Shown: positions 4,470 through 49,341 of the stretch, piece by piece
How positions within the stretch are numbered: the first letter of the stretch is position 1
Layout: every line of letters starts with the position of its first letter
DNA from: a virus
Reading direction: 5' to 3' (one strand)
Length of the DNA: 64,000 nt
Virus record (IMG/VR): IMGVR_UViG_3300008009_000010
Position numbers and translations under genes: made by a program
Notes under the pieces: model-generated
The model's input: the letters and a program-made list of their open reading frames with translations, nothing else
Database searches by the model: none
What the model was told of the DNA's origin: nothing

Positions 4470-5423
4470 TTATCTCCAAGCTGTTTGTACTGTATTTATC
4501 AAATAATTATTTATATTATCAAAATTAGGAACTTTTGGTAAAAAAACTGATTTTTCTATAGAATCTAATTCCAGTTTTAACTCATCAGCAATAGCCAAAA
4601 CTTCTTCTTTTGAATATTTCCCATTTCTAATATCAAGTAATAAAGCTTTTTCTTTTAAGGGAAAAATTAAATTTCCAGTTTTTATTAATTCTAATCCTTC
4701 TAACATAAGTCTGCAACAATGCATACCAAACTTTGAATCAAACCCATATTTTGTGATTAATTCTTTCCTGTTCCCTACTTTTGCCATTCGTTCATCAATT
4801 TTATCTTTAACTTTATATATATATTCTTTTAATGAAATATTTAAATCCCCTATTTTAGCGTGTTGTTCAAAAAATTTAATTCCTTCAGGAAAATTATCAT
4901 TCTTAAATTCAGCCAATAAACATTTCTTATTATTTTTTTCTAATAAAGTTGCTAACCATTCTTGTGAATTTTTTAGAATTGTATAATTATCAGCTTTAAT
5001 ATGCATTTTGTGCATTTGAGAAATAGCATAACCAATAAATTTTTGTTTGATCAACATACTAGGAAATATATCTCTCATTTCTCTAAGTTGTTTACCAATT
5101 TCATTTTCATAAATAATATTTTCATCATTAACAAAAATAGTTTCTATTAATGAAGGGTTTCCTTCCATTAATAGTTTAATGTATTTCCTGAATTCATAAA
5201 ATTTTTTATCAACTGCTTCTTTATTATTTTTACCATTTTCTTGTTTTGATATAATAGATAAATCAACTTCATTGAGTGTTTTAAGCCCTAAATAATATTC
5301 TTTTGGCGCTATAAAAATTCCCATGAAATCTTCATCTGATGTTTCAATATTAGTTCCATATAAATGTGAACCAACTCGTATTTCAAGAATTTTATTTTCT
5401 TTAGCGTATTCTTTAATATTCAT
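4470..5423 (-). CDS. Pol-beta-superfamily nucleotidyltransferase (RlaP/DUF-type)
   Basis: RVGSHLYGTNIETSDEDFMGIF (GS..YG....SD.D motif), GNPSLIE, KYGFDSKFGMHCCRL. Confidence 0.85.
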   Translation of the reverse strand: MNIKEYAKENKILEIRVGSHLYGTNIETSDEDFMGIFIAPKEYYLGLKTLNEVDLSIISKQENGKNNKEAVDKKFYEFRKYIKLLMEGNPSLIETIFVNDENIIYENEIGKQLREMRDIFPSMLIKQKFIGYAISQMHKMHIKADNYTILKNSQEWLATLLEKNNKKCLLAEFKNDNFPEGIKFFEQHAKIGDLNISLKEYIYKVKDKIDERMAKVGNRKELITKYGFDSKFGMHCCRLMLEGLELIKTGNLIFPLKEKALLLDIRNGKYSKEEVLAIADELKLELDSIEKSVFLPKVPNFDNINNYLINTVQTAWR

Positions 5424-5605: not shown

Positions 5606-5869
5606 CTACCAAATGTAATCATCATCATCATCTTGATAAACAAGATCTATATTAGGTTCTAAAAAATATTCTAAACCACAATGAGTAGAAAGTAATAGTT
5701 GTATTTTTTCAAGATCAGAAAAATCATCATAATTTTTTGATAAAAAATCTTCTGTAAGTAAACATGAATCACATATATGATTTTCTAATTCAATTCTAAT
5801 TTCTGATAAATAATAAGATTTAAATAACCAACTAGGATATGAAATCTTATATAAACTATAACTTTTCAT
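5606..5869 (-). CDS. Hypothetical protein
   Basis: 87 aa; ATGA overlap with the CCA-enzyme stop. Confidence 0.65.
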   Translation of the reverse strand: MKSYSLYKISYPSWLFKSYYLSEIRIELENHICDSCLLTEDFLSKNYDDFSDLEKIQLLLSTHCGLEYFLEPNIDLVYQDDDDDYIW

Positions 5870-6963
5870 AAAGTATTATATGCCTTTACATATTCATGTT
5901 CAACATAATCAATAATACTTTTTTTACCTTTACTTTGAATTTCTTTTGGCACACAAATTTGAGTTTTTTCAAAAACATCTTTCATTTTAAAAAGAATTGT
6001 ACTTTTTGAAGAATCTATAGTGTTTGTAGCATCATAAATTTCGATATATTGAAATAAATTTTTTTTAATTTTCTTAAAAAATTGTACAACCTCAATAATA
6101 GATAATGTTTCTAGATTATCAAAGTCTTTTTTAATAAGATTAAAATTTATAATCAATTCATTTTGTTTTGCTGTAAATTTGTGTTTATTAATAAAAGTTC
6201 TCAATTTTTTATCATCAATATTATGGAATAATGCTGCTAATGCCACATCAAACGAATAAAAATTTTCTTTTGCTTTATTAAAAGCGTCAAGATTAGACTT
6301 ATAAATTTTTGGTTCTAAAATATCAAAATGATAATCAATAGCATTAATATCTTTCAAAAAATCAAAAAATAATGAAGGAGTTTTAGCTTCATTATATGTT
6401 TTTTTGAGTTCAATATAAACTCTTTCATTATTTACAGCTTTTAAAATATGTTTATGTTCTTTTATTAATTTTAATGTTTCCTTCTCAACAGTTAAATTAA
6501 ATCTAGCAATAAATCTTGCTCCTCTATAAATTCTAATAGCATCTTCAATAAAAGCTTTAGGATTTACACAACGAAGTATTTTATTTTTAATATCATGAAT
6601 ACCATTGAAAGGATCAACATATTCATGTGTTAAATAATTTTTAGCAATACTATTAATTGAAAAATCTCTTCGAGATAAATCACTTTCAATAGAAACGTTT
6701 GTTTTTACTTCAAAGTCATGATAATTACCACATTCAGAAGTAGCTCTTTCAACTCGTGCTAAAGCAATTTCTGAGTTTAGTTCACTATGAATATAAACAG
6801 GAAATGAAACTCCAACTTTTTTATGTTCTGGAAATATACTTTCATATTCTTCTGTACTTGTTTTTTCAATGACATAATCTATGTCATGAGGAATTATATT
6901 CATAATTCCATCTCGAACACATCCTCCTACATAATAAACTTTATTATTTAATTCTTTAAACAT
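5866..6963 (-). CDS. cca: CCA-adding tRNA nucleotidyltransferase (class II); C-terminal HD domain looks degenerate
   Basis: YYVGGCVRDG...DIDY, DLSRRDFSINSIA, DPFNG..DI, EDAIRIYRGARF; LAALFHNI where HD would be expected. Confidence 0.9.
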   Translation of the reverse strand: MFKELNNKVYYVGGCVRDGIMNIIPHDIDYVIEKTSTEEYESIFPEHKKVGVSFPVYIHSELNSEIALARVERATSECGNYHDFEVKTNVSIESDLSRRDFSINSIAKNYLTHEYVDPFNGIHDIKNKILRCVNPKAFIEDAIRIYRGARFIARFNLTVEKETLKLIKEHKHILKAVNNERVYIELKKTYNEAKTPSLFFDFLKDINAIDYHFDILEPKIYKSNLDAFNKAKENFYSFDVALAALFHNIDDKKLRTFINKHKFTAKQNELIINFNLIKKDFDNLETLSIIEVVQFFKKIKKNLFQYIEIYDATNTIDSSKSTILFKMKDVFEKTQICVPKEIQSKGKKSIIDYVEHEYVKAYNTL

Positions 6964-7252: not shown

Positions 7253-7421
7253 TCTGACTCCTTTTTGAGTAAAAAGTTTTCTCTATTTTTACTATATGAC
7301 AAATTTTCATTGTCAAGAAAATACTTATAAAATTCACATAAAAAACGTTTTGATAAAAATAACTTAAAACATTTTTCGTCATAAGCACAACCAAATGAGA
7401 CATATTTACAACAATCAGAAG

Positions 7422-8333
7422 TCATAATAGTTCTTTCATTATATGAATAAAAACTTCCATGAATTGTTCTATATCAGATTCTGAAACTGCAATACCAGAA
7501 GTTTTTTCATGACCTCCTGATATTATTTTTACTTCTTTCATGATTCTATCATGAATTTCATGTGTTGTCAAATTTATTTTATTACTAATTCTTAATGAAA
7601 ATGTAAATTGTGAATCTTTAAATCCATTTAATATTAAATAAACATCATATTCCGGATAAAAAATGGTGAAATCATTTACAAAATAGATATTTGCATTCAT
7701 AATTATTAAAAGATTATTATATATATAACTATGATTACTCATAGAATCTTTTAAATATGCTGTTCGTTCATTTGTATTTTTTTCTAATATTAAATTATCT
7801 TCCTCATCAAGATGATACCCATTTTTAAATTTTTCAATAAATTTTTCAGCATTATATTTCCAGAAAAGTGCATTTAGTGGATATGATAATTTCATAAAAT
7901 CTTCATTAGAAGTATCCCATATATCATAAATATTAACAATTCTATTTAATTCATATAAATGAGAAATTTTACTATTATTTAAAAATTCATATAGTTGAAT
8001 ACAAGCACATTTTGAAGAATCAAGTTTTAGAGTTATATGTAATTTTTCACATAAATCATGTACATCAAACTCATAAACATGATGATCAATATAGATTATA
8101 ATATTTTTATCTGTTTTAAAAGACCCAATTTTTCTAAGTTGTTGTTCAGTATAATTAAGATCTGTTATAAATAAAACATCAAAATCTTTATCAATCTCAT
8201 CAATTAACTTATCAATTTTTGTATAACCAGATGCTTTCCATTGATAATCAGCATTTTTTGGAATAAAATTTAAAACATTAATAACGCTTGTTATACCATC
8301 AAGATCCCAATGTGATAAATGTCTAATTTTCAT
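7422..8333 (-). CDS. DHH-family phosphoesterase (RecJ/NrnA-like)
   Basis: HLSHWDLDG, ITDL, IDHH and C-terminal SGGH motifs. Confidence 0.9.
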   Translation of the reverse strand: MKIRHLSHWDLDGITSVINVLNFIPKNADYQWKASGYTKIDKLIDEIDKDFDVLFITDLNYTEQQLRKIGSFKTDKNIIIYIDHHVYEFDVHDLCEKLHITLKLDSSKCACIQLYEFLNNSKISHLYELNRIVNIYDIWDTSNEDFMKLSYPLNALFWKYNAEKFIEKFKNGYHLDEEDNLILEKNTNERTAYLKDSMSNHSYIYNNLLIIMNANIYFVNDFTIFYPEYDVYLILNGFKDSQFTFSLRISNKINLTTHEIHDRIMKEVKIISGGHEKTSGIAVSESDIEQFMEVFIHIMKELL

Positions 8334-23891: not shown

Positions 23892-24116
23892 ATGCAACAT
23901 AAACCACACTGTAATCTTTTAAAAAATGCAACAGGATCGCTTTACTCCCATCTACCTTGTAATTGTGGTGCAAGGGTTAATGAAGCGACAGTTAATGAAC
24001 TGTACGAAGCATTGGAACTAGCTTTAGAAATAATCAACAAATATACATACAAAGAATATATTGCTGGTATTTCAGTTATTGAAGATACGTTAAATAAATT
24101 TAAAATAGAGGAATAA
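23892..24116 (+). CDS. Hypothetical protein
   Basis: 74 aa, HCN..PCNCG. Confidence 0.6.
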   Translation: MQHKPHCNLLKNATGSLYSHLPCNCGARVNEATVNELYEALELALEIINKYTYKEYIAGISVIEDTLNKFKIEE

Positions 24117-24140
24117 AGATACACCACAAACGCAAACTAT

Positions 24141-24215
24141 GCTCCGGTAATTCAATGGGAGAATAGGCGACTTATAATCGCTCTATGGAAGGTTCGAATC
24201 CTCCCCGGAGTACCA
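24141..24215 (+). tRNA. tRNA-Ile (anticodon UAU)
   Basis: Acceptor GCTCCGG/CCGGAGT, D-stem ATTC/GAAT, anticodon arm GGCGA-CTTATAA-TCGCT, T-loop TTCGAAT, encoded CCA. Confidence 0.92.
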
Positions 24216-24264
24216 ATACAATAAATTCAGATGAAGTATCTGCCCTTAGAAGGGGGAGAAATAA

Positions 24265-24504
24265 ATGGCTAAATTTAATAGTTCGCGATGTAATGTTCTT
24301 TATAACAATACCTCGTTTCACGACTGGGAACATATTAAATACATACCAGTTGTACCAGAAATTACTATAGTTCCCTATGATGAGGTTGACTCAATTCCTA
24401 GTACCTTACCTCACAACGAAATTAAAGAATGCAGAAACTGTAGATTATGCTGTGTTTTTGATCATACTGGCACAATAGTTAAAATATTACATGGAGCCTA
24501 TTAG
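24265..24504 (+). CDS. Hypothetical protein
   Basis: 79 aa, GGGGAG RBS, CRNCRLCC. Confidence 0.55.
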   Translation: MAKFNSSRCNVLYNNTSFHDWEHIKYIPVVPEITIVPYDEVDSIPSTLPHNEIKECRNCRLCCVFDHTGTIVKILHGAY

Positions 24505-24816
24505 ATTAGGAGCATAAGAGATTATGCGGGAGCAACTTACTATATCCAGTCGTCATACCTTTTGTTCTAGGTGCCTGATTATGATGGGGAAACGCCCAGT
24601 CATAGAGATAAATACACCACCAACAGTAAACATAGGTGGTGTAACGTTAAGGATAAGTGATGACTAACGGACAGTTACCAAAAGGATACCCTCGGGAATA
24701 TAGACCTAGACCAGTTACTTACTGTATTGACTGTGGATACCCGCATATATCCTTACTTGATGCTAAACTTTGTTGTTTGGAAAAGCAAGTAGAGAGAAGA
24801 AAACGAGAGATAAGCG

Positions 24817-25011
24817 ATGAAAGATAAAGAGATTGAAGAAAACTACATTCACATGAGACTAGTCCTAAACGACTGTGTTGTTGAAAAACTTATCCCATTG
24901 GCTTTGGTTTTAACATCGAATGTAGATGAAGTGGCAAGATTTGCTACTCAAACATGGACAGAACTTCGCGAGAATAATGAATTTGCTGCATCGAGGGAAC
25001 TTCGGCACTAA
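24817..25011 (+). CDS. Hypothetical protein
   Basis: 64-aa ORF. Confidence 0.5.
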   Translation: MKDKEIEENYIHMRLVLNDCVVEKLIPLALVLTSNVDEVARFATQTWTELRENNEFAASRELRH

Positions 25012-25155
25012 GACGTATCTGTGGGGTCTTACCCCACGAGATGTAAGACTATAGGCCACGCCCGAAAGGGGCTATCAGTGGATGACGACATACAGAGAGT
25101 TAGCGACCTGGACAGCAACTCTTGCTGGCAGACCGAGAGTAAAAATAGTCTGCCC
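25012..25155 (+). ncRNA. Putative structured non-coding RNA
   Basis: GC-rich intergenic cluster of hairpins: GTGGGG/CCCCAC, a GAAA tetraloop hairpin, CAGCA/TGCTG, GGCAGAC/GTCTGCC; complementary loops ACTCT/AGAGT. Confidence 0.4.
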
Positions 25156-25215
25156 TTCAAATATAATAATTTTAATACTAATAAACATGACCAGAATAAT
25201 CAAAAGGAAAATAAT

Positions 25216-25443
25216 ATGTTGTTCAAGTACATTTATCTTGATGTTCCGTGGAGCTTGAATTATGTAGTTTATCGGAGCTTTTCTGATCTAAAAAAGTACA
25301 ATGAGAAGGATATGGTCAAATTCCACCGAGTGTGTACGTTCGTTACTGAATATGAGGCTCGTGATTATTGCGATTATCGAAATGAAATGGTCAAAAAATA
25401 TGAATCAGACGATGTGAATCTTATCGTTCGGACTAACATCTGA
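25216..25443 (+). CDS. Hypothetical protein
   Basis: True start probably 25216 (AAAGGA RBS), not 25021. Confidence 0.6.
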   Translation: MLFKYIYLDVPWSLNYVVYRSFSDLKKYNEKDMVKFHRVCTFVTEYEARDYCDYRNEMVKKYESDDVNLIVRTNI

Positions 25444-25463
25444 AAAGTCACAAAGGATACGAT

Positions 25464-25706
25464 ATGAGTGAACCAAAAGTACCAAAAGGGTTTGTAATGA
25501 TCTACACTGATACACAATCAATCTGTATGCGTATAGACCATATTATTTCAGTTGCAGTAGAGTGTGGCAAAAGCAAAGCACTCCACATTACAACAACAAA
25601 CGGAGATACTTATAAAGCATCTAATGACTTTGAAGACTTTTTAAAAAGTCTAGATGAAGAAGAAGATAAACCAGAATGGAATGGATATGGGTACAAGATA
25701 GGATGA
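25464..25706 (+). CDS. Hypothetical protein
   Basis: 80 aa with RBS. Confidence 0.6.
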   Translation: MSEPKVPKGFVMIYTDTQSICMRIDHIISVAVECGKSKALHITTTNGDTYKASNDFEDFLKSLDEEEDKPEWNGYGYKIG

Positions 25707-25790
25707 CCTTTACTAGTCACAGCAACATAGACAGTCAATTCATAATATTTGTCATGTTAATAAACATGATCAGAATAAAAGGTAGATAAT

Positions 25791-26240
25791 ATGAATATTG
25801 AAATAAATATTGATGATTATTTAAGTGAAGACGAAAAAAAATATGCTGTAACTACAGCTTTTAAAGAACTTGTCAAGTCAAATTTTAAAAGAGAAACAGA
25901 CTTAACAAGAATATTGTCTAATACAGCGTATGAAATAGTTCATAAAACAGTAGATGATATTTTAGGAGAAAGCACAAAAAGCATCATTGCAAAAGAGGTT
26001 AAACGAATTGTTCAGGATAAAAGTACACTAAAACACTCTATTTTTAAGAAACCAGATGCATGGGATAGAGAACCTAATAATGCCTATAAATTCCTCCAAA
26101 AATGTATTGAAGAACAATTTTCCGTTATCAAACAAATAGTTCAGGAAAATATCGAGAAAGAAACACTTAGTCTATTAAAAGAAAACTTAAATGATTATAT
26201 TGTAGAAGCAGTACAAGATCTTTTCATAGTTAATAAATAA
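25791..26240 (+). CDS. Conserved phage hypothetical protein
   Basis: 149 aa; IDDYLSEDEKK ... RILSNTAY ... AWDRE. Confidence 0.7.
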   Translation: MNIEINIDDYLSEDEKKYAVTTAFKELVKSNFKRETDLTRILSNTAYEIVHKTVDDILGESTKSIIAKEVKRIVQDKSTLKHSIFKKPDAWDREPNNAYKFLQKCIEEQFSVIKQIVQENIEKETLSLLKENLNDYIVEAVQDLFIVNK

Positions 26241-26453
26241 TTAATTTTTTATAATATAACCTACCTAAAAAATTAACTTTATTGTTTCAAGAATAAAAGA
26301 TATTCTTACCAAAAAATATAGAGTGCAATTATGTTAAAAATAACTCTTGACTTTTTAACATAATTGAAATATTATAAGTTATAAAGAATTTAAATTATTT
26401 TAAAGAAAGTTAAATTTTATCCTTAATATCAGATAACGTAAATAGGAGATGAA

Positions 26454-26774
26454 ATGAGTATTATTGAAGCATTAAGAGAAATCTATCTTGGGAACCTTCC
26501 ACGACCGGTTTACGGTATTTGTGGTAATATCAACAAATTGGCAGAGGGTTATTCTGATTTAGTGAATCATGATTGGTGGAGAAAAGCTTTAATTTCTTGG
26601 GACAAGTTCACAGGGGATTTTAATTATCCTATACCAGCAACAAATAAAAAATACAATCCCAGTGAACAATACAATAAAACTAAACAGTTATGGAGTGGTA
26701 AACAGGGGGAACTTCGTAAAGAACTGGTAAATCATCTTATTAAATTTACAGAGGGGTTAGACAAAAATGAATGA
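26454..26774 (+). CDS. Hypothetical protein
   Basis: 106 aa; GICGN, WDKFTGDFNYPIP, LW.G..GELR. Confidence 0.7.
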   Translation: MSIIEALREIYLGNLPRPVYGICGNINKLAEGYSDLVNHDWWRKALISWDKFTGDFNYPIPATNKKYNPSEQYNKTKQLWSGKQGELRKELVNHLIKFTEGLDKNE

Positions 26775-26967
26775 TCATAAAACCGAGAAGACTGTCTGTA
26801 TGGTAGGCAAACAACAATACAAAGAAATTGGTATCGTACCAGAGCTTTGTGAACAACTAGAAGATACGCTGCATTGGTTAGAAGATATAGCGTCTCTGGG
26901 AATCACTAATGATGATCTTTATTCATCCATTGAGTATGTGTTGAATAAGGCTAGAGGAGAAAATTAA
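26767..26967 (+). CDS. Hypothetical protein (segment paralogous to part of 27499..27891)
   Basis: WLEDIASLGITNDDLYSS vs WLEDAASLETNNDDPYSS. Confidence 0.6.
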   Translation: MNDHKTEKTVCMVGKQQYKEIGIVPELCEQLEDTLHWLEDIASLGITNDDLYSSIEYVLNKARGEN

Positions 26968-27458
26968 TGAACGACCATATCGAACGAATGAAAACTGAAC
27001 ATAAAGAGTTGAAAGAACGTATTGATAAGTTGAACACATTTATTTATTGTAATGATATGTTCCAGCGTCTGGATGATCAGGAAAAAGTTCGGATGATAAA
27101 GCAATCCGGATTTATGGAATCCTATCTGTCAGTACTTGAGTCTCGCATTTGGTGTGGTGAGAGTGGGAACTTAAGGTTGAATACCCTACACAAAAATGGA
27201 AAAGAGTGCCTTGGCCCTGGGTGTATGTACTGTGACGAGGATGAAATATTAAACAAAAACGAATGGAGAGTGAGAATGACTGAACATACAAGCGGGTTCA
27301 GAAAAGTGATAGAAATTACCAATAAACATTGTGAAGATATAATGGATGATATTTACTTTGTCTCTAAATCAAGAATGGAAAACATTATTGATTGTTTAGA
27401 GAGCGGGGCAAAGGAAATAAAGAACCTTAAAGAGAAACAGCGTGACGACTTTTTATGA
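26967..27458 (+). CDS. Chimeric hypothetical protein with an N-terminal crAss001_48-like module
   Basis: HIERMKTEHKELKERIDKLNTFI...Q...MESYLSVLESRI; the remainder is built from modules repeated downstream. Confidence 0.55.
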   Translation: MNDHIERMKTEHKELKERIDKLNTFIYCNDMFQRLDDQEKVRMIKQSGFMESYLSVLESRIWCGESGNLRLNTLHKNGKECLGPGCMYCDEDEILNKNEWRVRMTEHTSGFRKVIEITNKHCEDIMDDIYFVSKSRMENIIDCLESGAKEIKNLKEKQRDDFL

Positions 27459-27498
27459 CGTGGTGATTTATTAAAAAGAATGTCTCTGACCTGGATGT

Positions 27499-27891
27499 AT
27501 GTACTGTGACGAGGATGAAATATCAAACAAAAACGAATGGAGAGTGAGAATGACTGAACATAAAATCAAGCAGACAGGTATCATACCACCGTTGAGCTGG
27601 CTGGAAGATGCGGCGTCTTTGGAAACTAATAATGATGACCCATATTCTTCTACTGAAGATATTTTGGGCAAAACGAAAAAAGCAAAAAAACCTGGAGAGA
27701 AACAACACGATAACTTCTTATGGCGTGGTGATTTATTAAAAAGAGCCATTCCCTATCTTGAAGCTGATTTACTTGGAAGATTGTATTCTGAGTTACAAGG
27801 GGTGGTTGAAAATAAAGTTCTGTGTGACGCGCTAGAACAAGAATGTTGTGCCCTCGAAGCGTTAATTGAGGAAATAAGGTCGCAATTATGA
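27499..27891 (+). CDS. Mosaic hypothetical protein (duplicated modules)
   Basis: Begins with a near-exact copy of 27215-27290. Confidence 0.5.
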   Translation: MYCDEDEISNKNEWRVRMTEHKIKQTGIIPPLSWLEDAASLETNNDDPYSSTEDILGKTKKAKKPGEKQHDNFLWRGDLLKRAIPYLEADLLGRLYSELQGVVENKVLCDALEQECCALEALIEEIRSQL

Positions 27892-28183
27892 ATACTCATT
27901 TAGAAAGAGCAAATAAAATGAACTGGCGCGTAAAATACTGGAGATGGATAAACGAATATGGAGGTGAGTGATGTATATTATACTCGGAATATTGATTGGA
28001 TTAGTAACCTTTTTAGTCTTAGAGATTGTTACTAATAGTCATAAACTACCAGACGACCACGATTTTACGTGTAAAAAAAATACGCTAAAAAGCACTCAAC
28101 TGGATGATAAGCAGCGCCATGAATGGGTTTAAATAATCCGGGTACTGGGTCGCAAGGCAGACACTCTTTCAGAAAGAGGTGAA

Positions 28184-28351
28184 ATGACAATGCTAGGATT
28201 GCTAAAATCACTGACCGATGTTGCCACAGATGTAGTCAAAACCATAGCCGCACCTGCGGAAATAGCGGTTGACCTGACCAGAGCCGTTACCAAACCTATT
28301 GCCGACACCGCCGATGAACTGGTGAAAGAAGTGAAAAAAGCTACGAAATAA
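28184..28351 (+). CDS. Small amphipathic hypothetical protein (55 aa)
   Basis: Read manually: MTMLGLLKSLTDVATDVVKTIAAPAEIAVDLTRAVTKP...; AGAGGTG RBS. Confidence 0.6.
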   Translation: MTMLGLLKSLTDVATDVVKTIAAPAEIAVDLTRAVTKPIADTADELVKEVKKATK

Positions 28352-28437
28352 CGAACAGTGACCGTATGAGGTCAGCGGTTGTGTAGAAAGCAGCTTATAC
28401 AACATCATTGTAACTACGTACACTGAAAGGATTTGCT

Positions 28438-28650
28438 ATGCCGTTTTTACGTACCGAATCAACTGGGACAATCGAGATCAGTCAGGCTGATTACAACTGG
28501 ATTGCTGAGAGGATGAACACAGCACCATCCGGAACTGTGTCGTTTAGCAGTGCAGCGATAAAACGCTATCGGAAAATTACCGGGCAGGAATTTGAAGAAG
28601 TGTGGAAAATAAAATCTGAAATGCTTAATGAGTTTGGACATTTGGCATAA
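28438..28650 (+). CDS. Hypothetical protein
   Basis: 70 aa, AAAGGA RBS. Confidence 0.55.
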   Translation: MPFLRTESTGTIEISQADYNWIAERMNTAPSGTVSFSSAAIKRYRKITGQEFEEVWKIKSEMLNEFGHLA

Positions 28651-28693
28651 GAGTATTGATAAGTAGAAAATCAACCAACTAAAGGAGAACAAA

Positions 28694-28873
28694 ATGAAAT
28701 TTACACTTGAAGATTTCCAAGAAAATGTTAATAAATGTGAAAGCGCAGAAGAAATTGATGCACTCTGTATGTCTTGGTTGAACCTCTTGTGCATGGACAG
28801 CGGTAGAGATGGAGATATAGCAAAAGCTTTACTTCGTGTTGTTGGAGATCTAATCGGGTGCGACCAGATTTAG
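28694..28873 (+). CDS. Hypothetical protein (59 aa)
   Basis: Read manually; AAAGGAG RBS, MKFTLEDFQENV... Confidence 0.55.
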   Translation: MKFTLEDFQENVNKCESAEEIDALCMSWLNLLCMDSGRDGDIAKALLRVVGDLIGCDQI

Positions 28874-28898
28874 CATTACAACGTAATAGGAGAACCTA

Positions 28899-29150
28899 AT
28901 GACCCTAAACGAAGCAATCAACTGGGTAGAGAAAAACTGTACAGAAGAAGTCTGTAAAAGAATTCGTTCACGCGCTGTTGCTCGTACCTTATTAGATGAA
29001 ATTGAAAGACTCCAAACTAATCTCATTATTGCAGCATACGACACATTACTACAGGACGTTTGCAATGAATATATGGACGTAAACGACGACGGAAGATTCA
29101 AAAGTCACAACGAATTGGCAGAAAGAGTGAACAAGTTATTGGGAATCTAA
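28899..29150 (+). CDS. Hypothetical protein
   Basis: 83 aa, AGGAG RBS. Confidence 0.6.
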   Translation: MTLNEAINWVEKNCTEEVCKRIRSRAVARTLLDEIERLQTNLIIAAYDTLLQDVCNEYMDVNDDGRFKSHNELAERVNKLLGI

Positions 29151-29246
29151 CGATTGAAGCCAAAGCCTTGAGAGACCAAATTGCGGTTCTTAAAAAAGGC
29201 ATCAGTGATCGTGATAACAATACTTATTAAAAAGGAAACGAGTGTT

Positions 29247-29426
29247 ATGAGATATATTCACCACGTTGGTTCAATGATATTTGGGTATTTTCTCTACATT
29301 CTGGCGTTCAAAATTTTCGACGTGCATCCTGACAATCGCTTTTTCTGCAAAGCACTTCCGTATATGGGTTACTGGGGCTATCACCCGAAAGAGTTGAGGT
29401 GGTGGAAGCCTGCACAGAAAATCTAA
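29247..29426 (+). CDS. Small membrane-associated hypothetical protein
   Basis: Likely start at the GTT-ATG at 29247. Confidence 0.5.
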   Translation: MRYIHHVGSMIFGYFLYILAFKIFDVHPDNRFFCKALPYMGYWGYHPKELRWWKPAQKI

Positions 29427-29509
29427 CGCCGCAAATAAGCGGCAGACCACCAAGTAGACAAGCATGAACAAAAAACGGCGAAACCGCCCACTGGAGTGAC
29501 TGGTTATGC
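29421..29509 (+). other. attC-like (integron cassette junction) sequence
   Basis: ATCTAAC inverse core containing the upstream stop, GTTATGC core containing the next ATG, 89 bp; inner arms pair imperfectly. Confidence 0.35.
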
Positions 29510-29679
29510 AAAAATTTATAGTGATAGTAACAAATGAAATACTCGGTAATTCTCGGCATGAAATGACTCTTGACCAAATAAAAAAATTTAATCTCTGTGC
29601 TTATCGGCTGGCATTAAAGTCTGCCAAAAACAATGGGCAAGAATATTCAGATGGAATGTGGACGGTTCGGACGACATAG
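29506..29679 (+). CDS. Hypothetical protein (57 aa)
   Basis: Read manually: MQKFIVIVTNEILGNSRHEM... Confidence 0.45.
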   Translation: MQKFIVIVTNEILGNSRHEMTLDQIKKFNLCAYRLALKSAKNNGQEYSDGMWTVRTT

Positions 29680-29730
29680 CAGCGTTAATAGATAGAAAAT
29701 TTACTATTTAACGTAATAGGAGAACATCAA

Positions 29731-30027
29731 ATGATCCAAGAAATTAAAGATCTACTCGCTGACGAATCTGACAAATGGAGATTAGACGCCGATGATTGGA
29801 TTGTATACGTCGAAGAATTAGTTGCAGAGGTCGAAAAGTGGAAGAAGCTCTGCGAACTTCTGTGTCTGGACAACAGGGAAATTGCTGATCTAGCTGAGGA
29901 GAACCTGAGACTTAAAACCAAGATCTTAGAATTGCAGGATTTTGTTAAATGGATGACCGGATGTGGTTATGACTTTGCGGAATTACCATACTTCAGAGCA
30001 AAAAGAGACAAACTACTAAAAACATAG
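29731..30027 (+). CDS. Hypothetical coiled-coil protein
   Basis: 98 aa, AGGAG RBS. Confidence 0.6.
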   Translation: MIQEIKDLLADESDKWRLDADDWIVYVEELVAEVEKWKKLCELLCLDNREIADLAEENLRLKTKILELQDFVKWMTGCGYDFAELPYFRAKRDKLLKT

Positions 30028-30066
30028 AATTACTGTTGTTCCTACTAATAATCGAGATAAAAGACA

Positions 30067-30314
30067 ATGGATGAATACTGGAAACCAAAGAACGAGCAGA
30101 TTGTAAAAGCTGTGTGCTATTCAGATGCAACAAGCCAAAATCGTCTGCTTCACAGACTTGGTCAACACAAAATGCTGTTATCAAAAGACTCCGTGGTCAG
30201 CTTCAAAATTGTGTTAACCACTTAGAGCGAGCAAACAGAAGGTGGCCGGAAAATGAAGAGTTTGAAGCAGCGATAGCTTCTGCAAATAAAGCACTGTACG
30301 AGACTAATAGCTAA
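30067..30314 (+). pseudogene. Frameshifted hypothetical gene
   Basis: MDEYWKPKNEQIVKAVC...RLGQ continues as TQNAVIKRLRGQLQNCVNHLE in another frame. Confidence 0.45.
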
Positions 30315-30338
30315 TTATAAACGTTTTTGGAGGTTAAT

Positions 30339-30533
30339 ATGAAAACGCAAACAGAGAGTATTATTTTGACAAACAAAGAAGGACAGCAATTGAGAATTTA
30401 TAAATTGGAAGGAGAAGGCCCGTTGTTGTTTTGCCTTGGAATAGATGGAGACTCTGAGCATTTTCGGTTTTCAGCTGACGATGCTGAATATATCACAAAA
30501 GAGGTAGATGTGGTTGTTAATTCATTTATCTAA
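30339..30533 (+). CDS. Hypothetical protein
   Basis: Likely start at 30339 (GGAGG RBS). Confidence 0.6.
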   Translation: MKTQTESIILTNKEGQQLRIYKLEGEGPLLFCLGIDGDSEHFRFSADDAEYITKEVDVVVNSFI

Positions 30534-30560
30534 CATTGTAAATGACCAGAAAGGGGAAGC

Positions 30561-30848
30561 ATGAAACTCAAAATAAGGCACGAGACAAAAGAACGAAAAT
30601 ACTTGAGTAGGAACAGTTACCAAAATGTGCTGCGAGACGTTGAACTTGAACCGGTGAAAATTGTACGGACACAATGTGGTATAGGTGCAGCAGAAAACAG
30701 GTATTTTTACCGTGGGTATTTCCCAGCACCAATTGATGCAGAGTTTGTCACAGACGGACTGATTAACGTGAATATTGTGAGAAAACTCAACCCGCAATTT
30801 AAACCGAAAACACTTGATTGGGCAAACAATATTTGTTTGATTGTCTAA
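30561..30848 (+). CDS. Hypothetical protein
   Basis: 95 aa, AAAGGGG RBS. Confidence 0.6.
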   Translation: MKLKIRHETKERKYLSRNSYQNVLRDVELEPVKIVRTQCGIGAAENRYFYRGYFPAPIDAEFVTDGLINVNIVRKLNPQFKPKTLDWANNICLIV

Positions 30849-31152
30849 TATTGTTAATAGCTAGAAAATCTACTGATTAAAACAAAGATAGACATTAGAA
30901 AAGTCAAATAATTAAGAGTATTATCGTTGATGACACTATCTTATATTGTGGGGATTGTCTTGATATTTTGCCGACTGTTGACAAAGGATGAAGATTATTT
31001 TTAAATAGCCAAACAATGAGATGTGTCAAGTACCTTTGTTCTGACTTTAAATATTTCAAATTTTTACAGTTTATTCATTTTTTGTATTGACAATTCAAAA
31101 AACAAATGATAAAGTATACTCATCTTGAACACAAAACAATAAAGGATAAAAT

Positions 31153-31398
31153 ATGTTTATGATGAGTACAGAAACAGAAGAACAAAGGATTGAAAGAGAA
31201 AAAATTGATAACTTCTGTGAAACACTACCAACAATATGGTTGGAAGGAATTGCAGACTGCCGACGTCTCGCTGATACAATTTACTTTTCGGGTTCAACTC
31301 CTTTGTTAGACATTACAGCTAAACATATAGGAATGAGTATTGAGGATATTGAGATTCTACTTACTTCTGCTCTTGATGAGTTTTTCGGGGAAGAATGA
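31153..31398 (+). CDS. Hypothetical protein
   Basis: 81 aa; TTGACA promoter and AAAGGA RBS upstream. Confidence 0.6.
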   Translation: MFMMSTETEEQRIEREKIDNFCETLPTIWLEGIADCRRLADTIYFSGSTPLLDITAKHIGMSIEDIEILLTSALDEFFGEE

Positions 31399-31433
31399 AT
31401 AAAACCTGATATATCTAAAGGAAATAAATTAAG

Positions 31434-32054
31434 ATGAAACCTTCTTCCACTGAAATGATACAAATTGCAAATAACATTAAAAAACCAAGCAAAAAAGATT
31501 GTCTGAAAATTCTAAAAGAGATGGCTGTACTGTATCCGGATAGTATGCATGAATTTGCTAAGCTTTATACATACTTTATGCCTGGAATCCCAATAAAACC
31601 TAAAACTGTATTTCAATGGGTTGCTAAAGCAGTTTCTAATCCAAAGTATTGTAAGGAATTATTGAAATTAGTTTATATTGACAAAGAAAACATTGTTGCA
31701 ACGGATGATTATAGATTACACGTTGCACCGAATTCAGACAATCTTGAACCTGGATATTACTGCCCAAAAACGAGTGATTATCTTTATCCATTAGATAAAT
31801 ATGATTATCCTGATTATAAAAAATTATTGTCTAATGTAGAAGGTCATTCAATCCAAGTAAAAACCACAACATTAAAAGAGGTAAATCAGATTATAAGAGT
31901 CTGTCTTAATGAAGGGCCAGAAGTCAATAAAAAATATCTTGATGATGCTTTGTGCTTCTGTGAAGGAAATATTTTTTATGGAAAGAACGAAAATAATTTA
32001 GTTAAAGTTATCACACCAAAAGGTATTGCAATTATTATGCCTATGGTAAAATAA
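31434..32054 (+). CDS. Protein with a DNA polymerase III beta-clamp-like segment
   Basis: IVATDDYRLH, YPDYKKLL and C-terminal AIIMPM resemble beta-clamp domain motifs. Confidence 0.5.
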   Translation: MKPSSTEMIQIANNIKKPSKKDCLKILKEMAVLYPDSMHEFAKLYTYFMPGIPIKPKTVFQWVAKAVSNPKYCKELLKLVYIDKENIVATDDYRLHVAPNSDNLEPGYYCPKTSDYLYPLDKYDYPDYKKLLSNVEGHSIQVKTTTLKEVNQIIRVCLNEGPEVNKKYLDDALCFCEGNIFYGKNENNLVKVITPKGIAIIMPMVK

Positions 32055-38359: not shown

Positions 38360-39275
38360 ATGAGCAATCCTAGATTTCCTGTTTATATTATTTCTAAAGG
38401 TCGTCATGAATCAATGATTACCTCTAGATCTTTATCAAGAATGAAAGTTCCTCATTATATCAGTGTTGAACCACAAGATTGGGATCTTTATGAAGAAGCA
38501 CTAGATAAATTTAATATCAGAAAGTGGGTAACTTTGTTATTACTTCCATTTTCTAATCATGGTGATGGGCCCTGGAAGAGCTAGAAATTGGTGTTGGGAT
38601 CATAGTATTTCTTTAGGATTTGAAAAACATTGGGTATTAGATGATAATATTTCTGATTTTTATAGACTGAATAAAAATAAAAGAATTAGAGTGGGATCAG
38701 GTGTAATTTTCAGGGCAGCTGAAAATTTTATTGATCGTTATGAGAATGTTCCTATTTCTGGATTTCAATATCGTTTTTTTATTGCACCTAATTTAAAATA
38801 TCCTCCATTTGTAAAAAATACTAGAATTTATTCTTGTTTGCTTATTCAAAATGATTGTCCATTTAGATGGAGAGGTAGATATAATGAAGATACTGATCTT
38901 TCTTTAAGAGTTTTAAAAGCTGGGCTTTGTACTATTCAGTTTAATATTTTTTTACAGGGTAAACTTGCTACTCAAACAGTAAAAGGTGGTAATACTTCTG
39001 AATTCTATCATGTTGAGGGTGACCTGGATAAACAAAAATGGCGTGATGGTAAACTAAATTCTGAAGGTACTATCAATAAATCTCAAATGCTAGTTGATAT
39101 GCACCCGGATGTTTGTTGGTTAGTTTTTAGATATGGTAGATGGCACCATCATTGTAATTATGAACCTTTTAAAAAAAATAAACTTAAATTTAAACCAAAT
39201 ATTAATTTAAATGTTTTAAAACAATTACCTAATGATGAATATGGTATGAAATTAATTACAAATTTTAAAAAATAA
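38360..39275 (+). pseudogene. TAGT/GREB1-like GT-A glycosyltransferase split by a +1 frameshift at 38567-38572
   Basis: PVYIISKGR...SNHGDG(P) continues as GRARNWCWDH..HWVLDDNI..TRIYSCLLI..RWRGRYNEDTDL..KGGNT; removing one base from GGGCCC fuses the two ORFs. Confidence 0.8.
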
Positions 39276-39898: not shown

Positions 39899-39927
39899 TT
39901 GACAAACCAATATTTATGTTATATAAT
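39899..39927 (+). promoter_or_regulatory. Sigma70-type promoter for the tRNA operon
   Basis: TTGACA-N17-TATAAT, 24 nt before the tRNA. Confidence 0.8.
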
Positions 39928-39950: not shown

Positions 39951-40026
39951 GCTCCTATAGTTAAATGGTTATAACGGTTGCCTTATAAGCGATTATTGGA
40001 CGGTTCAATTCCGCCTAGGAGTACCA
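39951..40026 (+). tRNA. tRNA-Ile (anticodon UAU), second copy
   Basis: Acceptor GCTCCTA/TAGGAGT, D-stem GTTA/TAAC, anticodon arm GTTGC-CTTATAA-GCGAT, T-loop TTCAATT, CCA. Confidence 0.9.
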
Positions 40027-40055: not shown

Positions 40056-40208
40056 ATGTCTCAAGAAGAATTAAAAGAAATTGAAAATTATTTCAAAAAT
40101 CAAATCACTTTCGATAATAGATTATCTCCTGATTATGCTGATTCTTTTCGTTGTGCTGAATTAGTAAATAAACTAATTAAAGAACTTTCATTAGAAAGTA
40201 AAAAATAA
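40056..40208 (+). CDS. Small hypothetical protein
   Basis: Likely start at 40056; the track start overlaps the tRNA. Confidence 0.5.
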   Translation: MSQEELKEIENYFKNQITFDNRLSPDYADSFRCAELVNKLIKELSLESKK

Positions 40209-40214
40209 ATTTAA

Positions 40215-40301
40215 GCTCCCTGCCCCCTCATCGGTCTTCTAAACCGATCCTTTAAACGAGGGATGGAAAGGTATGAGATTCGATTTCTCCAGGGAGTTCC
40301 A
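40215..40301 (+). ncRNA. Atypical tRNA-like RNA, anticodon UCU, no canonical D-arm
   Basis: 8-bp acceptor GCTCCCTG/CAGGGAGT + U73 + CCA; 6-bp anticodon stem ATCGGT-CTTCTAA-ACCGAT; 4-bp T-stem with a TTCGATT loop. Confidence 0.8.
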
Positions 40302-40323
40302 TTTTTTAAAAAGAGTCTCAAAA

Positions 40324-40647
40324 ATGAAAAATCAAGAAATTTTTAATATTATAAAAAATGAATTTGATGAAGAAATTGCTATTAATGCAACTATTTTAAT
40401 TTGTATTAATAAAACTTTGATACCTTTAAATAATGAAATGATTAATAATGAATTATATAGTGATAGACTTAAAAAACAATTTGAATCAGTATTATATCAA
40501 CTTACAGATGAAAAAATATCACTTTGTTTAGATATTTGGGAAGTTTGGCATACGTTTGAAATATGTCAAGATATGCATGGAATAAGTGGAATTGTAAAAA
40601 GATCCCTTAAAGAAATAATTCATATTAAAAATAATAAAGGTAAATAA
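40324..40647 (+). CDS. Hypothetical protein
   Basis: Likely start at 40324. Confidence 0.6.
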   Translation: MKNQEIFNIIKNEFDEEIAINATILICINKTLIPLNNEMINNELYSDRLKKQFESVLYQLTDEKISLCLDIWEVWHTFEICQDMHGISGIVKRSLKEIIHIKNNKGK

Positions 40648-42814: not shown

Positions 42815-42958
42815 ATGAAAGAATGTTGTGGTAATTGCAAGAAACACACAGGAGAAAGCTCAAGTCCTTTTAAATTAGGATTATGTAGTTCAACATTAAA
42901 TTCAGATGATACCACCCATAATGATGATTGGTGTGAAGATTTTGAGAGGAAAGAATAA
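42815..42958 (+). CDS. Small Cys-rich protein
   Basis: Likely start MKECCGNCKKH...WCEDFE, AAGGAG RBS. Confidence 0.5.
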   Translation: MKECCGNCKKHTGESSSPFKLGLCSSTLNSDDTTHNDDWCEDFERKE

Positions 42959-43527
42959 TGTCATATTTTGATGAAGCTTATGAAAAAACAATGGAACATG
43001 AAGGATATTATTCTAATGATCCAGATGATCCTGGTGGTGAAACATATAAAGGAATTTCAAGAATTTTTAATCCTTCATGGGATGGTTGGAAATTAATTGA
43101 TCTTTATAAAACAATTGATGGTTTTCCTTCTAATTTAAAATTTATGGATAATTTACAAAAAACTGTTAAGATTTTTTATAAATTAAAATATTTTGATGTT
43201 TTTTGTGGGGATGAATTAGATAAAAATTTAGCAATGAAAATGTTTGATTGTGCTGTTAATTTAGGAACATATAGAGCAATTTTATTTCTTCAAAAATCAT
43301 TAAATGTTCTTAATAGAAATGAAAAATTGTATAAAGATTTATTTGAAGATGGATCTTATGGTAAAAAAACTCATACAACATTAAAAACATATTTAATTAC
43401 AGATTCATCCGAATTGTTAGCTAAATTAATAATGATCCAACAAGGGAATTATTATTTTGAAACTATGCGTAAATCACCTTCACAAGAAAAATATGCTAGA
43501 GGTTGGTTTAATCGAATTTACTTATAA
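42958..43527 (+). CDS. Endolysin, glycoside hydrolase family 108 with a peptidoglycan-binding domain
   Basis: HEGYYSNDPDDPGGETYKGIS, MFDCAVNLG, LQKSLN, DG.YG.KT, ARGWFNR. Confidence 0.92.
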   Translation: MSYFDEAYEKTMEHEGYYSNDPDDPGGETYKGISRIFNPSWDGWKLIDLYKTIDGFPSNLKFMDNLQKTVKIFYKLKYFDVFCGDELDKNLAMKMFDCAVNLGTYRAILFLQKSLNVLNRNEKLYKDLFEDGSYGKKTHTTLKTYLITDSSELLAKLIMIQQGNYYFETMRKSPSQEKYARGWFNRIYL

Positions 43528-44368: not shown

Positions 44369-45991
44369 ATGAAAAAAAATGTTTTACTGTTATTTGTATT
44401 ATTAATCATAGTGAGTATTGGCTATGCAGACGATAATGAAAAAAAGAATAGAACTAATGACTTTTTTCAATCATCTTATCAACATGAAGATGACGATGAT
44501 GAAGAGGATGAAAATAAATATTATAGTAAAGAGGATGATGAAGATGAAGAGGATAAACCACAACCAGATATATTAGATTCAGATAATGATGGGGTTTTAG
44601 ATGATAATGATCAATGCCCTAACACTCCTATCAATGATGTAGTAGATGCTAATGGATGTACTATTACAGAGGAAATTCCTTATACTGATGGCCACTATGA
44701 TAACCCTTCTTGTGTAACTTGTCATGATATAGAAGCTAATCAAGTTCATGATTCCATTCATTATCAATGGAATGGCCCTGCAACATATAATATTACTGGT
44801 AATGTTGAACAGGGTAAAGCTAATGGTGCGGTTAATACTTATTGTGGTAATATAATTGGTAACTGGGAAGGTTGTTCTGCTTGTCATATTGGAAGTGGTA
44901 AACAAATTGTTAAAATTCCTACAGAAGAATCATTAAAAGATATTAATTGTTTAAAATGTCATGAAGCACCTGGTAAATCTTCAACAAGAGAAACTTGTTT
45001 AATATGTCACGCTAAAGCTGGTGGTGGTGATGCAATAAAACGTGGAGATTTAGCTCTTGCTACTGGTAATACCACTGATAAAAAATATGATGTTCACATG
45101 GCAACTACTGGTGCTAATTTAACTTGTCAAGAATGTCATATAACAGAAAATCATAAAATAGCTGGGCGTGGTTCTGATATTCGGCCAACTGATCTTGATG
45201 TTCAAGTATCATGTAATCAGTGTCATGATTCACAACCACATGATAATTCAACATACAATAAACATATAGCTAAAGTTGCTTGTCAAACTTGTCATATACC
45301 AATTTATGCTAAAAATGCTAGTGATAGTAATGCAACAGAAGCAACAGAAATTTTTAGAACCTGGAAATCTTCAGAAGCAATATTACCTCCTTTTCACCCA
45401 ACAAATGAACTAGCTAATAATTTAGTTCCTGTTTATAGATTTTGGAATAAAGATAGTTATAATTATAATATTGGTGAAATGACTATTTTTGATGAATCTA
45501 CTGGAACATATAATACTTCTGTCCCTCAAGGTGATTCATCTGAATCAAATTCTAAACTTTACCCATTTAAATATAAAACTGTTGAACAACCAATGACTAT
45601 TGGAAGTAATATTATTATTCCTTTAAATACTAAAATTTTCTTTGCTACTGCTGACACTGAAGCTGCAATAAAATCAAGTTTAGAATTAATGGGTTTATCA
45701 GTTGATACCCCTTATGAATGGATTATTGCAGATACTTACCAAGCATTAAATCACCAAGTTAGCCCATCTTCTGATGCGTTGACTTGTAAACAATGTCATG
45801 TAGGTGGAACTAATAATGTTAATTTACAATCTTTAGGTTATGCCCCAACTTTACCAATTTCAAGTTGTTCTATTTCTTGCCATAGTGCAAATAAAGCTAA
45901 AGAATGGGAACTCGATAATTTTAGTGATTTTAAAGATCACCATGAAAAACATAAACGTTACTCATGTAATAAATGTCATACAAATAAATAA
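44369..45991 (+). CDS. Exported multiheme c-type cytochrome, octaheme tetrathionate reductase (Otr)-like with extra C-terminal hemes
   Basis: Sec signal peptide; 9 CxxCH plus 1 CxxxCH; Otr-type motifs HYQW..GK..N.YC, GGGDAIKRGDL, DVHM, H..KVACQTCHIP, NHQV. Confidence 0.9.
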   Translation: MKKNVLLLFVLLIIVSIGYADDNEKKNRTNDFFQSSYQHEDDDDEEDENKYYSKEDDEDEEDKPQPDILDSDNDGVLDDNDQCPNTPINDVVDANGCTITEEIPYTDGHYDNPSCVTCHDIEANQVHDSIHYQWNGPATYNITGNVEQGKANGAVNTYCGNIIGNWEGCSACHIGSGKQIVKIPTEESLKDINCLKCHEAPGKSSTRETCLICHAKAGGGDAIKRGDLALATGNTTDKKYDVHMATTGANLTCQECHITENHKIAGRGSDIRPTDLDVQVSCNQCHDSQPHDNSTYNKHIAKVACQTCHIPIYAKNASDSNATEATEIFRTWKSSEAILPPFHPTNELANNLVPVYRFWNKDSYNYNIGEMTIFDESTGTYNTSVPQGDSSESNSKLYPFKYKTVEQPMTIGSNIIIPLNTKIFFATADTEAAIKSSLELMGLSVDTPYEWIIADTYQALNHQVSPSSDALTCKQCHVGGTNNVNLQSLGYAPTLPISSCSISCHSANKAKEWELDNFSDFKDHHEKHKRYSCNKCHTNK

Positions 45992-48231: not shown

Positions 48232-49341
48232 ATGTTAGTACAAAAATTTTTACGAGATAATTCACTTGAAACACTTGTTGAAAAATATGGGATTAAAGTT
48301 GTTGAACATCCTACTGATGGACGAGTAATTTTAAATTATAGTCAAATAGATTCTGTAAAAACAGAACCCATTGTTATGGAATGTCGAGGACTAGTTCTTG
48401 ATAAGAATAATAATTGGAATGTAGTAGCACGGTCTTTTGATCGTTTTTTTAATTTATTTGAACATTCTGAATTAACAGATACATTTGATTGGTCTGATTT
48501 TTCATGTACTTCAAAAGAAGATGGTTCATTAATTCTTTTTTATTTCTATAATGGAGAATGGCAAATAAATACTCGTGGTTCTTTTGCTGATTCTATTTGT
48601 GGATTTTCTGATAAAACCTGGAAAGAACTTATTATTAATTTACTCCCTAATGATACTTCTATGTTCTTAAAAAATTTCACCTATATTTTTGAGTTTTGTT
48701 CTTTACAAAATAAAATTGTTAGAAATTATAGTGAACCAACTCTTTATTTAATTGGTATTAGAGATAATAAAAATAATAATGATATTAAAAATTCTTCATT
48801 AGATATTGAAGCAAAACACCTTGGTCTTAAACGTCCCGTGTCTTATGATTTTAAATCTCTTCAAGAAATTCAGAATTTTTTGAAACAACAAGAATCTGAA
48901 GATGCAAGTTTTGAAGGAGTTGTCCTAAGAGATAAAAATGGCCTTAGAATGAAAATTAAAAGTTCAACTTATATTGCTCTTCATAGACTCCGTGGGGAAA
49001 ATAATAATATTTTTAATCCTAAATATCTAATTCATTTTGTGTTATCAGGGGAATCTAATGAACTTCTCACTTATTTTAATGAAGCAAAAGATGCTTATTA
49101 TAAATGTGAAGCTCTTGTTCATAATGAACTTTCTAACCTCACTGATATTTTTCTTGCAACAAAAAATATTGAAGACCAAAAAGAATTTGCTTCAGCTGTT
49201 ATAAAAAAATATAATACAAAATTTCCAAATATTCTCTTTAAATTAAAAAAAGAATTTGGTACTCAAGCAACAAAAGAAATTTTGCTTGCTATCTGGAGAG
49301 ATTCAGCAGATATGATTTATAAAGTTATTTATAAAAAATAA
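48232..49341 (+). CDS. ATP-dependent RNA ligase, T4 Rnl1-like
   Basis: ECRGLV, KFF-like RSFDRFFN, motif I SKEDGSLI, INTRGS, IFEF, EGVVL, MKIKS..Y..LH. Confidence 0.9.
   Translation: MLVQKFLRDNSLETLVEKYGIKVVEHPTDGRVILNYSQIDSVKTEPIVMECRGLVLDKNNNWNVVARSFDRFFNLFEHSELTDTFDWSDFSCTSKEDGSLILFYFYNGEWQINTRGSFADSICGFSDKTWKELIINLLPNDTSMFLKNFTYIFEFCSLQNKIVRNYSEPTLYLIGIRDNKNNNDIKNSSLDIEAKHLGLKRPVSYDFKSLQEIQNFLKQQESEDASFEGVVLRDKNGLRMKIKSSTYIALHRLRGENNNIFNPKYLIHFVLSGESNELLTYFNEAKDAYYKCEALVHNELSNLTDIFLATKNIEDQKEFASAVIKKYNTKFPNILFKLKKEFGTQATKEILLAIWRDSADMIYKVIYKK

Follow-up and report, generated by a model that had tools for sequence, protein, structure and literature searches.

The gene described here comprises 87 bases (40215-40301, + strand) of the window, meaning the whole 64,000-nucleotide stretch of viral DNA under analysis, and probably encodes a functional phage elongator tRNA-Arg(UCU) with a rewired core. 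The D hairpin is absent, and a long-range pseudoknot, in which strand P ahead of the anticodon arm pairs with strand Q inside the loop of the variable arm, takes its place; covariation among relatives shows that this pairing (40225-40229 with 40258-40262) is real. The window belongs to a T4-like phage of ∼25% G+C that encodes a gp43 polymerase, gp32, a Dda helicase and a clamp loader. The element and its upstream neighbors display the following features.

39899-39927 (+): putative sigma-70-type promoter (TTGACA/17 nt/TATAAT, 12/12), upstream of tRNA-Ile and the element
39951-40026 (+): canonical tRNA-Ile(UAU), called by ARAGORN and Rfam; probable first gene of the element's transcription unit
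40056-40208 (+): 50-aa open reading frame between tRNA-Ile(UAU) and the element, no family match
40215-40222 (+): acceptor stem, 5′ strand, 8 nt, read directly; 8/8 pairs covary in the family
40223-40224 (+): 2-nt connector CC in place of nucleotides 8-9; varies across the family
40225-40229 (+): strand P, CCCTC, counterpart of nucleotides 22-25 (3′ half of the D-stem), paired with 40258-40262
40230-40235 (+): anticodon stem, 5′ strand; its A40230, the conserved A that resembles position 26, is here paired with U40248
40236-40242 (+): anticodon loop CUUCUAA, with the anticodon UCU at 40238-40240; invariant in the MAFFT alignment A1
40243-40248 (+): anticodon stem, 3′ strand, read directly and by covariation
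40249-40253 (+): variable-arm stem, 5′ strand CCTTT; the stem covaries, more weakly (71-76% of cells paired)
40254-40257 (+): A-rich spacer AAAC preceding strand Q, read directly
40258-40262 (+): strand Q, GAGGG, counterpart of nucleotides 10-13 (5′ half of the D-stem), paired with 40225-40229
40263-40267 (+): AUGGA, D-loop remnant with putative analogues of A14, G18, G19 and A20
40267-40271 (+): variable-arm stem, 3′ strand AAAGG, read directly and by covariation
40275-40289 (+): T-arm, with a 4-bp stem GAGA/TCTC (40275-40278 with 40286-40289) and loop TTCGATT, read directly and by covariation
40290-40297 (+): acceptor stem, 3′ strand, read directly and by covariation
40298-40301 (+): discriminator U (40298) and encoded CCA (40299-40301), read directly

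The acceptor stem of the window element comprises 8 bp, including G1·U, and the anticodon stem 6 bp, and the variable-arm hairpin encloses a 13-nt loop that contains both GAGGG (40258-40262) and ATGG (40263-40266). The gap between the acceptor and the anticodon arm measures only 7 nt and holds no D hairpin, as in the 91 relatives described below. Direct reading confirms the 8-bp acceptor stem, 4-bp T-stem, TTCGATT loop, 6-bp anticodon stem and missing D hairpin of the original prediction, which had also given the connector as 6 nt long; its CCCTC part stands, and the true length is 7 nt (CC plus CCCTC, 40223-40229). Several features of canonical tRNAs are present, including (i) a 12-bp acceptor plus T branch, (ii) the T-loop TTCRA, (iii) an anticodon loop of 7 nt in which 33 is U and 37 a purine, and (iv) the 3′ CCA. 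A run of six T (40302-40307) lies directly 3′ of the CCA, no terminator-like site occurs between the 39899-39927 promoter and the element, and cotranscription with tRNA-Ile(UAU) is plausible.

Standard finders are silent on the element. In bacterial mode, ARAGORN calls just two tRNA genes in the window, both canonical tRNA-Ile(UAU), and its relaxed and mitochondrial modes give no correct call of the element, only wrong-strand artefacts; Rfam at the gathering level (29 bits for RF00005, 47 bits for tRNA-Sec, RF01852) returns the same two tRNA-Ile(UAU) genes and not the element, and a search of 40100-40400 even at E<10 reveals nothing tRNA-like and no RF00005 match. Neither tool assigns the element to a canonical or known RNA. 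The energy of the single-sequence fold is unremarkable (z −1.4); a pairing of the CC connector with the GG of AUGGA in the MFE fold was rejected, since the GG is constant and the connector varies without compensation. A covariance model built from 30 relatives, with the window excluded and the P:Q helix included (R2), finds the element as the sole site in the 64 kb, at 84.4 bits and E 5.4e-23 and with every modelled pair standard, which places it far above chance.

BLAST of the 501-bp neighborhood against sequenced phages gave no match, nor did an exact 39-nt pattern in viral contigs, and none of the 80 related loci reached by synteny through the gene of a TET-associated glycosyltransferase (TAGT, PF20691) has the element in place. 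Proteins that share 66-78% identity with the TAGT itself (38559-39275, +) are encoded by at least 80 viral contigs. The first lead came from one of these TAGT-related loci, L018, with a truncated copy of the element 6 kb away. Three degenerate patterns were searched, comprising (i) a first one, drawn from the window element and L018 with UCU forced, which gave the first full relatives; (ii) a broader one, with the anticodon unconstrained and GGATGGA forced; and (iii) a third, with the pseudoknot and the GG motif unconstrained and UCU forced. All D-hairpin-less matches to the anticodon-free pattern carry UCU. A structural parser collected 91 distinct relatives of the same build, from viral contigs and a few MAGs, so that the absence of homologues, which would have spoken against the original prediction, does not apply; a scan of a genome collection yielded at least five MAG contigs with true members, the matches listed being mostly chance.

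The 91 relatives preserve the 12-bp branch in 81 cases, as 8/4 in 69 and 9/3 in 12, and 59 encode the CCA; the discriminator is mixed (T in 35, A in 28, G in 23 and C in 5). The best sub-threshold Rfam scores of type A members are to tRNA-Sec, at 25-30 bits versus the 47 needed, and the anticodon is UCU, not UCA. A minority of loci (L090, L319, L330, L336, L338, L353, L356, L373 and L388) display a variant, type B, with a branch that is mostly 7/5 or 8/5 (9/3 by the parser's reading of L090 and L338), no variable-arm stem in most (a short one in L338) and UCU retained. Its P:Q helix is bulged, the connector starting with TA(T)C in most and the partner strand ending in GUA, followed by AAUGGA or AACUGGA. 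Two type B relatives pass the RF00005 threshold, L090 (32.9 bits) and L373 (35.6 bits), and type B may represent an intermediate between the cloverleaf and type A.

The central structural claim, the CCCTC:GAGGG pseudoknot, was already part of the original prediction and is borne out by the homologues and their covariation. Alignment A3 comprises 83 matches scoring at least 54.9 bits to a covariance model of the acceptor, anticodon, variable and T stems from which the pseudoknot was left out (R1), and is thus not fitted to the P:Q helix. On A3, 94.1% of P:Q cells are paired and four of the five pairs show double-sided changes, one pair occurring as CG 34, GU 21, UA 13, AU 4 and GC 3 times. The covariation score reaches 0.543, compared with 0.147±0.017 after shuffling (0/500 as high) and at most 0.09 when the partners are offset by 1-3 columns. 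On A1, which MAFFT built blind to structure, 93.3% of cells are paired; because A1 misplaces some subgroups by one column, covariance-model alignments were used, and the P:Q figures are conservative, as shifted subgroups count as unpaired.

Pairing of each connector with its own variable region averages 5.02, versus 3.96±0.08 with the regions of other relatives (0/10000 permutations), and a blind ranking by mutual information places helix pairs in all of the top 12 positions, two of them being P:Q. Such shuffle counts overstate significance, since the relatives share ancestry and are not independent, and the variety of compensated pair types, with over 40 distinct P:Q combinations in the family, is the stronger argument. 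Compensatory changes are present in all five helices, the variable stem being weak in some subgroups, and a search by mutual information for extra tertiary pairs outside these five helices found nothing convincing.

The polarity of the two strands tells which part of the D-arm was relocated. A conserved A links strand P without a break to the anticodon stem and is retained even when it is unable to pair (52 A:U, 27 unpaired), the same continuity by which the D-stem 3′ strand of a cloverleaf tRNA (22-25) runs through 26 into 27. After strand Q comes AUGGA (in type B, AAUGGA), which matches the D-loop AAUGGAUA found directly after the D-stem 5′ strand in canonical phage tRNA-Arg(UCU) genes among the loci. 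Because P abuts the anticodon stem and Q precedes AUGGA, the relocated part is the D-stem 5′ strand together with the D-loop; the original prediction was right about the D-loop but had the 3′ strand moving with it, where polarity and motif point to the 5′ strand.

Read in this way from the sequence, the gene order is acceptor, 22-25, 26, anticodon arm, spacer, 10-13, 14-20 and T-arm, from which we infer that, relative to the cloverleaf, segment 10-21 has been swapped with segment 22-43. In folded tRNA, residue 8 adjoins 21/22 at the upper end of the D-stem and 43/44 adjoins residue 10 at the lower end, a geometry from which the swap should be sterically easy. The permuted order could have arisen by partial tandem duplication and two subsequent deletions.

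AGA accounts for 63% of the arginine codons in the long open reading frames of the window. Counted per locus, mostly on fragments, canonical tRNA-Arg(UCU) is absent from the member loci (0/121, and 0/35 among loci with at least five tRNAs), compared with 4/16 control loci that hold one (Fisher p=0.007); L177 and L338, with 27 and 28 tRNAs, respectively, are examples of loci that have none. Many member loci with at least five tRNAs carry Arg UCG, ACG, CCU or GCG. The complete genome of Escherichia phage Av-05 (KM190144.1) comprises 14 ARAGORN tRNAs, none of them for Arg, to which RF00005 adds no Arg, and its tRNA cluster contains the rewired element (∼7397-7478, −), which scores 83.7 bits to R1. 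Two copies of the fold with other arginine anticodons lie directly beside UCU copies, one with UCG (L381:7153-7235, −) and one with ACG (L375:6509-6592, −). The fold is not limited to arginine, since versions with the tyrosine anticodon GUA exist (L355:11389-11474, −; L088:7510-7593, +; L215:3163-3248, +; L113:3994-4082, −); by eye, those of L355 and L088 display a 6-bp helix between the connector and the variable loop, followed by UGGA.

Bacterial ArgRS recognizes A20 as the main determinant, together with C35 and U/G36 (PMC9976931). Within this identity set, C35 and U36 or G36 are found in the UCU anticodon here and in the UCG and ACG of the sister copies, and GGA follows strand Q in the window element and in 41 of the 52 relatives sampled without constraint on the GGA motif. 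The GG of AUGGA is presumed to dock on the T-loop and its final A to act as the ArgRS determinant; in the window element, the A after GG is predicted to be paired in the variable stem, and its reading by ArgRS would need the stem to open. The G1·U72 and U73 of the window element are unusual for tRNA-Arg.

In the proposed mechanism, transcription would begin at the 39899 promoter, jointly with tRNA-Ile(UAU), and ordinary tRNA trimming would release the RNA. The acceptor and T stems would supply the standard 12-bp branch as 8+4 next to an ordinary anticodon arm, the D-stem would be built in altered strand order by the pairing of P with Q, located in the loop of the variable-arm hairpin, and the GG of AUGGA would dock on the T-loop to form the elbow. 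ArgRS would read the A of AUGGA as A20 alongside C35 and U36, and the charged tRNA would decode AGA, the main arginine codon of the phage. An artificial tRNA devoid of the D-arm is accepted by the HisRS, EF-Tu and ribosomes of E. coli, the main limit being degradation by PNPase (PMC11551756), an instability that the rebuilt D-stem would plausibly cure.

The original prediction had left a choice between a rearranged tRNA for AGA and a decoy; homologues and covariation support the rearranged tRNA, and the decoy is less likely because large phage tRNA sets have no other UCU species, a slot that the fold fills. A mimic acting outside translation and displaying an anticodon loop of the arginine type, diverting a host tRNA-targeting nuclease or tRNA-binding factor or serving as a regulator, would fit a phage whose T4-type RNA ligase 1, RlaP nucleotidyltransferase and CCA-adding enzyme suggest pressure from tRNA damage, and certain metagenomic non-canonical tRNAs are charged yet unused in translation (PMC5389517). 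Such a mimic would, however, have no need to be the sole UCU species in sets of 20-28 tRNA genes or in Av-05, nor to retain the 12-bp EF-Tu branch, the CCA end and the A20-like residue, and the sister copies with other arginine anticodons look like isoacceptors; we consider it unlikely. Less probable still is recoding, with AGA read as another amino acid, Ser by virtue of the long variable arm, or Gly or Cys through U73. The 8/4 branch and long variable arm do resemble those of serine-accepting allo-tRNAs (PMC5389517), the window copy has U73, and tRNA-Sec gives the members their best sub-threshold Rfam scores (25-30 bits), but the discriminator is not conserved, type B lacks the variable stem and still has UCU, the fold also occurs with UCG and ACG, anticodons that have only arginine identity in common, and tRNA-Arg has the same D-loop motif, A20 included. 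Recoding would also be very costly, since AGA is the commonest arginine codon of the phage, in conserved replication genes too.

The silence of the standard finders and a fold-energy z of only −1.4 would fit a decayed tRNA-Arg pseudogene or a chance tRNA-like fold, yet we regard either as vanishingly improbable in view of the 91 distinct relatives, in which each of the five helices shows compensatory changes, the E value of 5e-23 from the independent model R2 and the presence of the element in many cultured phages of different families. The original prediction had equated decay with a lack of covariation, and P:Q covaries strongly (0/500 shuffles). An elongator tRNA-Arg(UCU) accordingly remains the preferred reading. 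That its rewiring is an adaptation and not a frozen accident is a tentative idea, which we find doubtful: the altered fold would evade a host defence nuclease that targets tRNA, or the phage's own host-shutoff activity, AGA decoding being kept while canonical tRNA-Arg(UCU) is destroyed. If true, the features read by ArgRS, EF-Tu and the ribosome would all be kept and the surface or topology recognized by the nuclease or shutoff activity altered, which would also account for the Tyr-anticodon versions of the fold; the only hint of such an anti-defence role, a weak one, is the repair genes.

Compared with canonical tRNA-Arg(UCU) (RF00005; L036, L074 and L089), the element shares (i) the loop CUUCUAA, the T-loop, the CCA and often the anticodon stem, (ii) the D-loop motif A(A)UGGAU with A20 and the A at 26, and (iii) the slot in phage tRNA clusters. 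The canonical form has a D hairpin and a 7/5 branch, whereas the element places 10-21 after the anticodon arm, adopts 8/4 and adds a variable-arm helix, and it is missed by RF00005 and ARAGORN. Circularly permuted tRNA genes of the red alga Cyanidioschyzon merolae also depart from the cloverleaf order of segments, and their transcripts are processed back to a normal tRNA. Unlike these, the rewired RNA must keep its permuted topology when mature, because its 5′ and 3′ ends are already the acceptor ends. The tRNA-like structures of plant RNA viruses lie at the 3′ ends of genomic RNAs, form a pseudoknot in the acceptor arm and are not decoders. They resemble the element in that a pseudoknot shapes a tRNA-like molecule accepted by host enzymes, but the element stands as a gene of its own, and both its acceptor stem and its anticodon are normal.

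Allo-tRNAs (Mukai et al., NAR 2017, PMC5389517) likewise display a 12-bp branch arranged as 8/4 or 9/3, a long variable arm and a long anticodon stem, occur in phages and metagenomes, and include 9/3 members with AGA/AGG anticodons. They differ in having a tRNA-Sec-like D stem-loop (long stem, tetraloop), in keeping with the earlier statement that allo-tRNAs keep a D hairpin, which the element lacks; no pseudoknot has been described for them, and they are thought to accept serine (PMC5389517). The D-armless mitochondrial tRNA-Ser(UCU/GCU), as in Ascaris suum (PMC7609411), and the synthetic mini HisT (PMC11551756) share with the element the missing D hairpin and a short connector between the acceptor and the anticodon arm, the mitochondrial tRNA also UCU. 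In both, however, the connector is unstructured, the shape is a flexible Y or boomerang and the G18/G19 dock is absent, whereas the connector of the element pairs with a covarying partner and the GG motif is kept: a 5-bp D-stem and GG are rebuilt by long-range pairing in a molecule with a fully canonical T-arm, and the setting is that of bacterial translation. A review of non-canonical tRNAs lists D-armless forms for mitochondria only (PMC7609411), and, according to a paper from 2024, every known bacterial tRNA is a cloverleaf and natural armless tRNAs occur only in mitochondria (PMC11551756). If charged and used, the rewired tRNA would be a natural and widespread exception on bacterial ribosomes and a second route to the L-shape, by permutation of the D-arm.

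The element occurs across cultured phages of different families, BLAST and the covariance model placing it in E. coli phage Av-05 and Acinetobacter phage KARL-1, among others. BLAST with three members as queries matched (i) 55 records, from Acinetobacter, Vibrio, Aeromonas, Escherichia, Salmonella and Pseudomonas phages; (ii) five records, including Nitrincola phage 1M3-16 and the 440-kb Salicola phage SCTP-2; and (iii) 298 records, mainly from Vibrio phages. The GenBank records inspected never have a tRNA feature under the match, which is unannotated or overlapped by a 'hypothetical protein', so that phage tRNA counts and codon-usage analyses are systematically incomplete; no published description of the fold was found in the non-subscription full-text literature searched. 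Being carried by cultured phages of E. coli, Acinetobacter, Vibrio and Aeromonas, the element can be tested at once; it gives structural studies a means of asking which features of the tRNA core ArgRS, RNase P, EF-Tu and the ribosome depend on, and the rewired fold offers a new scaffold for orthogonal tRNAs.

Further observations concern the window phage and the loci of the relatives. The window encodes a set of tRNA repair and maturation enzymes at 4470-5423 (−), 5866-6963 (−) and 48232-49341 (+), comprising an RlaP-family nucleotidyltransferase, a CCA-adding enzyme and a T4-type RNA ligase 1, which suggests that tRNA damage and repair matter to this phage; Av-05 likewise encodes a tRNA nucleotidyltransferase alongside its rewired tRNA. 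A 540-aa multi-haem c-type cytochrome (Pfam Cytochrome_cB and Cytochrome_C7) is encoded at 44369-45991 (+), near a GH108 lysozyme gene (42958-43527). The stretch 24000-32000 has a G+C content of 0.35-0.37, versus ∼0.25 elsewhere, and small open reading frames only; it starts at the first tRNA-Ile(UAU) gene (24141-24215).

In Vibrio phage 1.084.O (L401, MG592459.1; 1201-1280 and 1400-1978), the rewired tRNA is followed, ∼120 nt downstream, by a gene annotated as an HNH nuclease, and a group I intron match (L119:2556-2760, 55.2 bits) lies ∼740 nt downstream of another family member, which hints that the rewired gene travels with mobile elements. Two other unusual tRNA-like genes were encountered. 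Av-05 (L400, KM190144.1) carries at 7680-7776 (−), ∼200 nt from its rewired tRNA-Arg, a 97-nt allo-tRNA-like gene that reads UAU at the anticodon and combines a long variable arm with a 6-bp D-stem capped by a tetraloop; this gene scores 28 bits to RF00005 and is not called by ARAGORN. A 62-nt tRNA-like gene (L096:5940-6001, −; identical in L126, L179, L189 and L192), with the loop CUUGUAA (UGU, Thr) and 31.4 bits to R1, is devoid of both the D-arm and the variable region, like mitochondrial armless tRNAs, and resides within large phage tRNA clusters.
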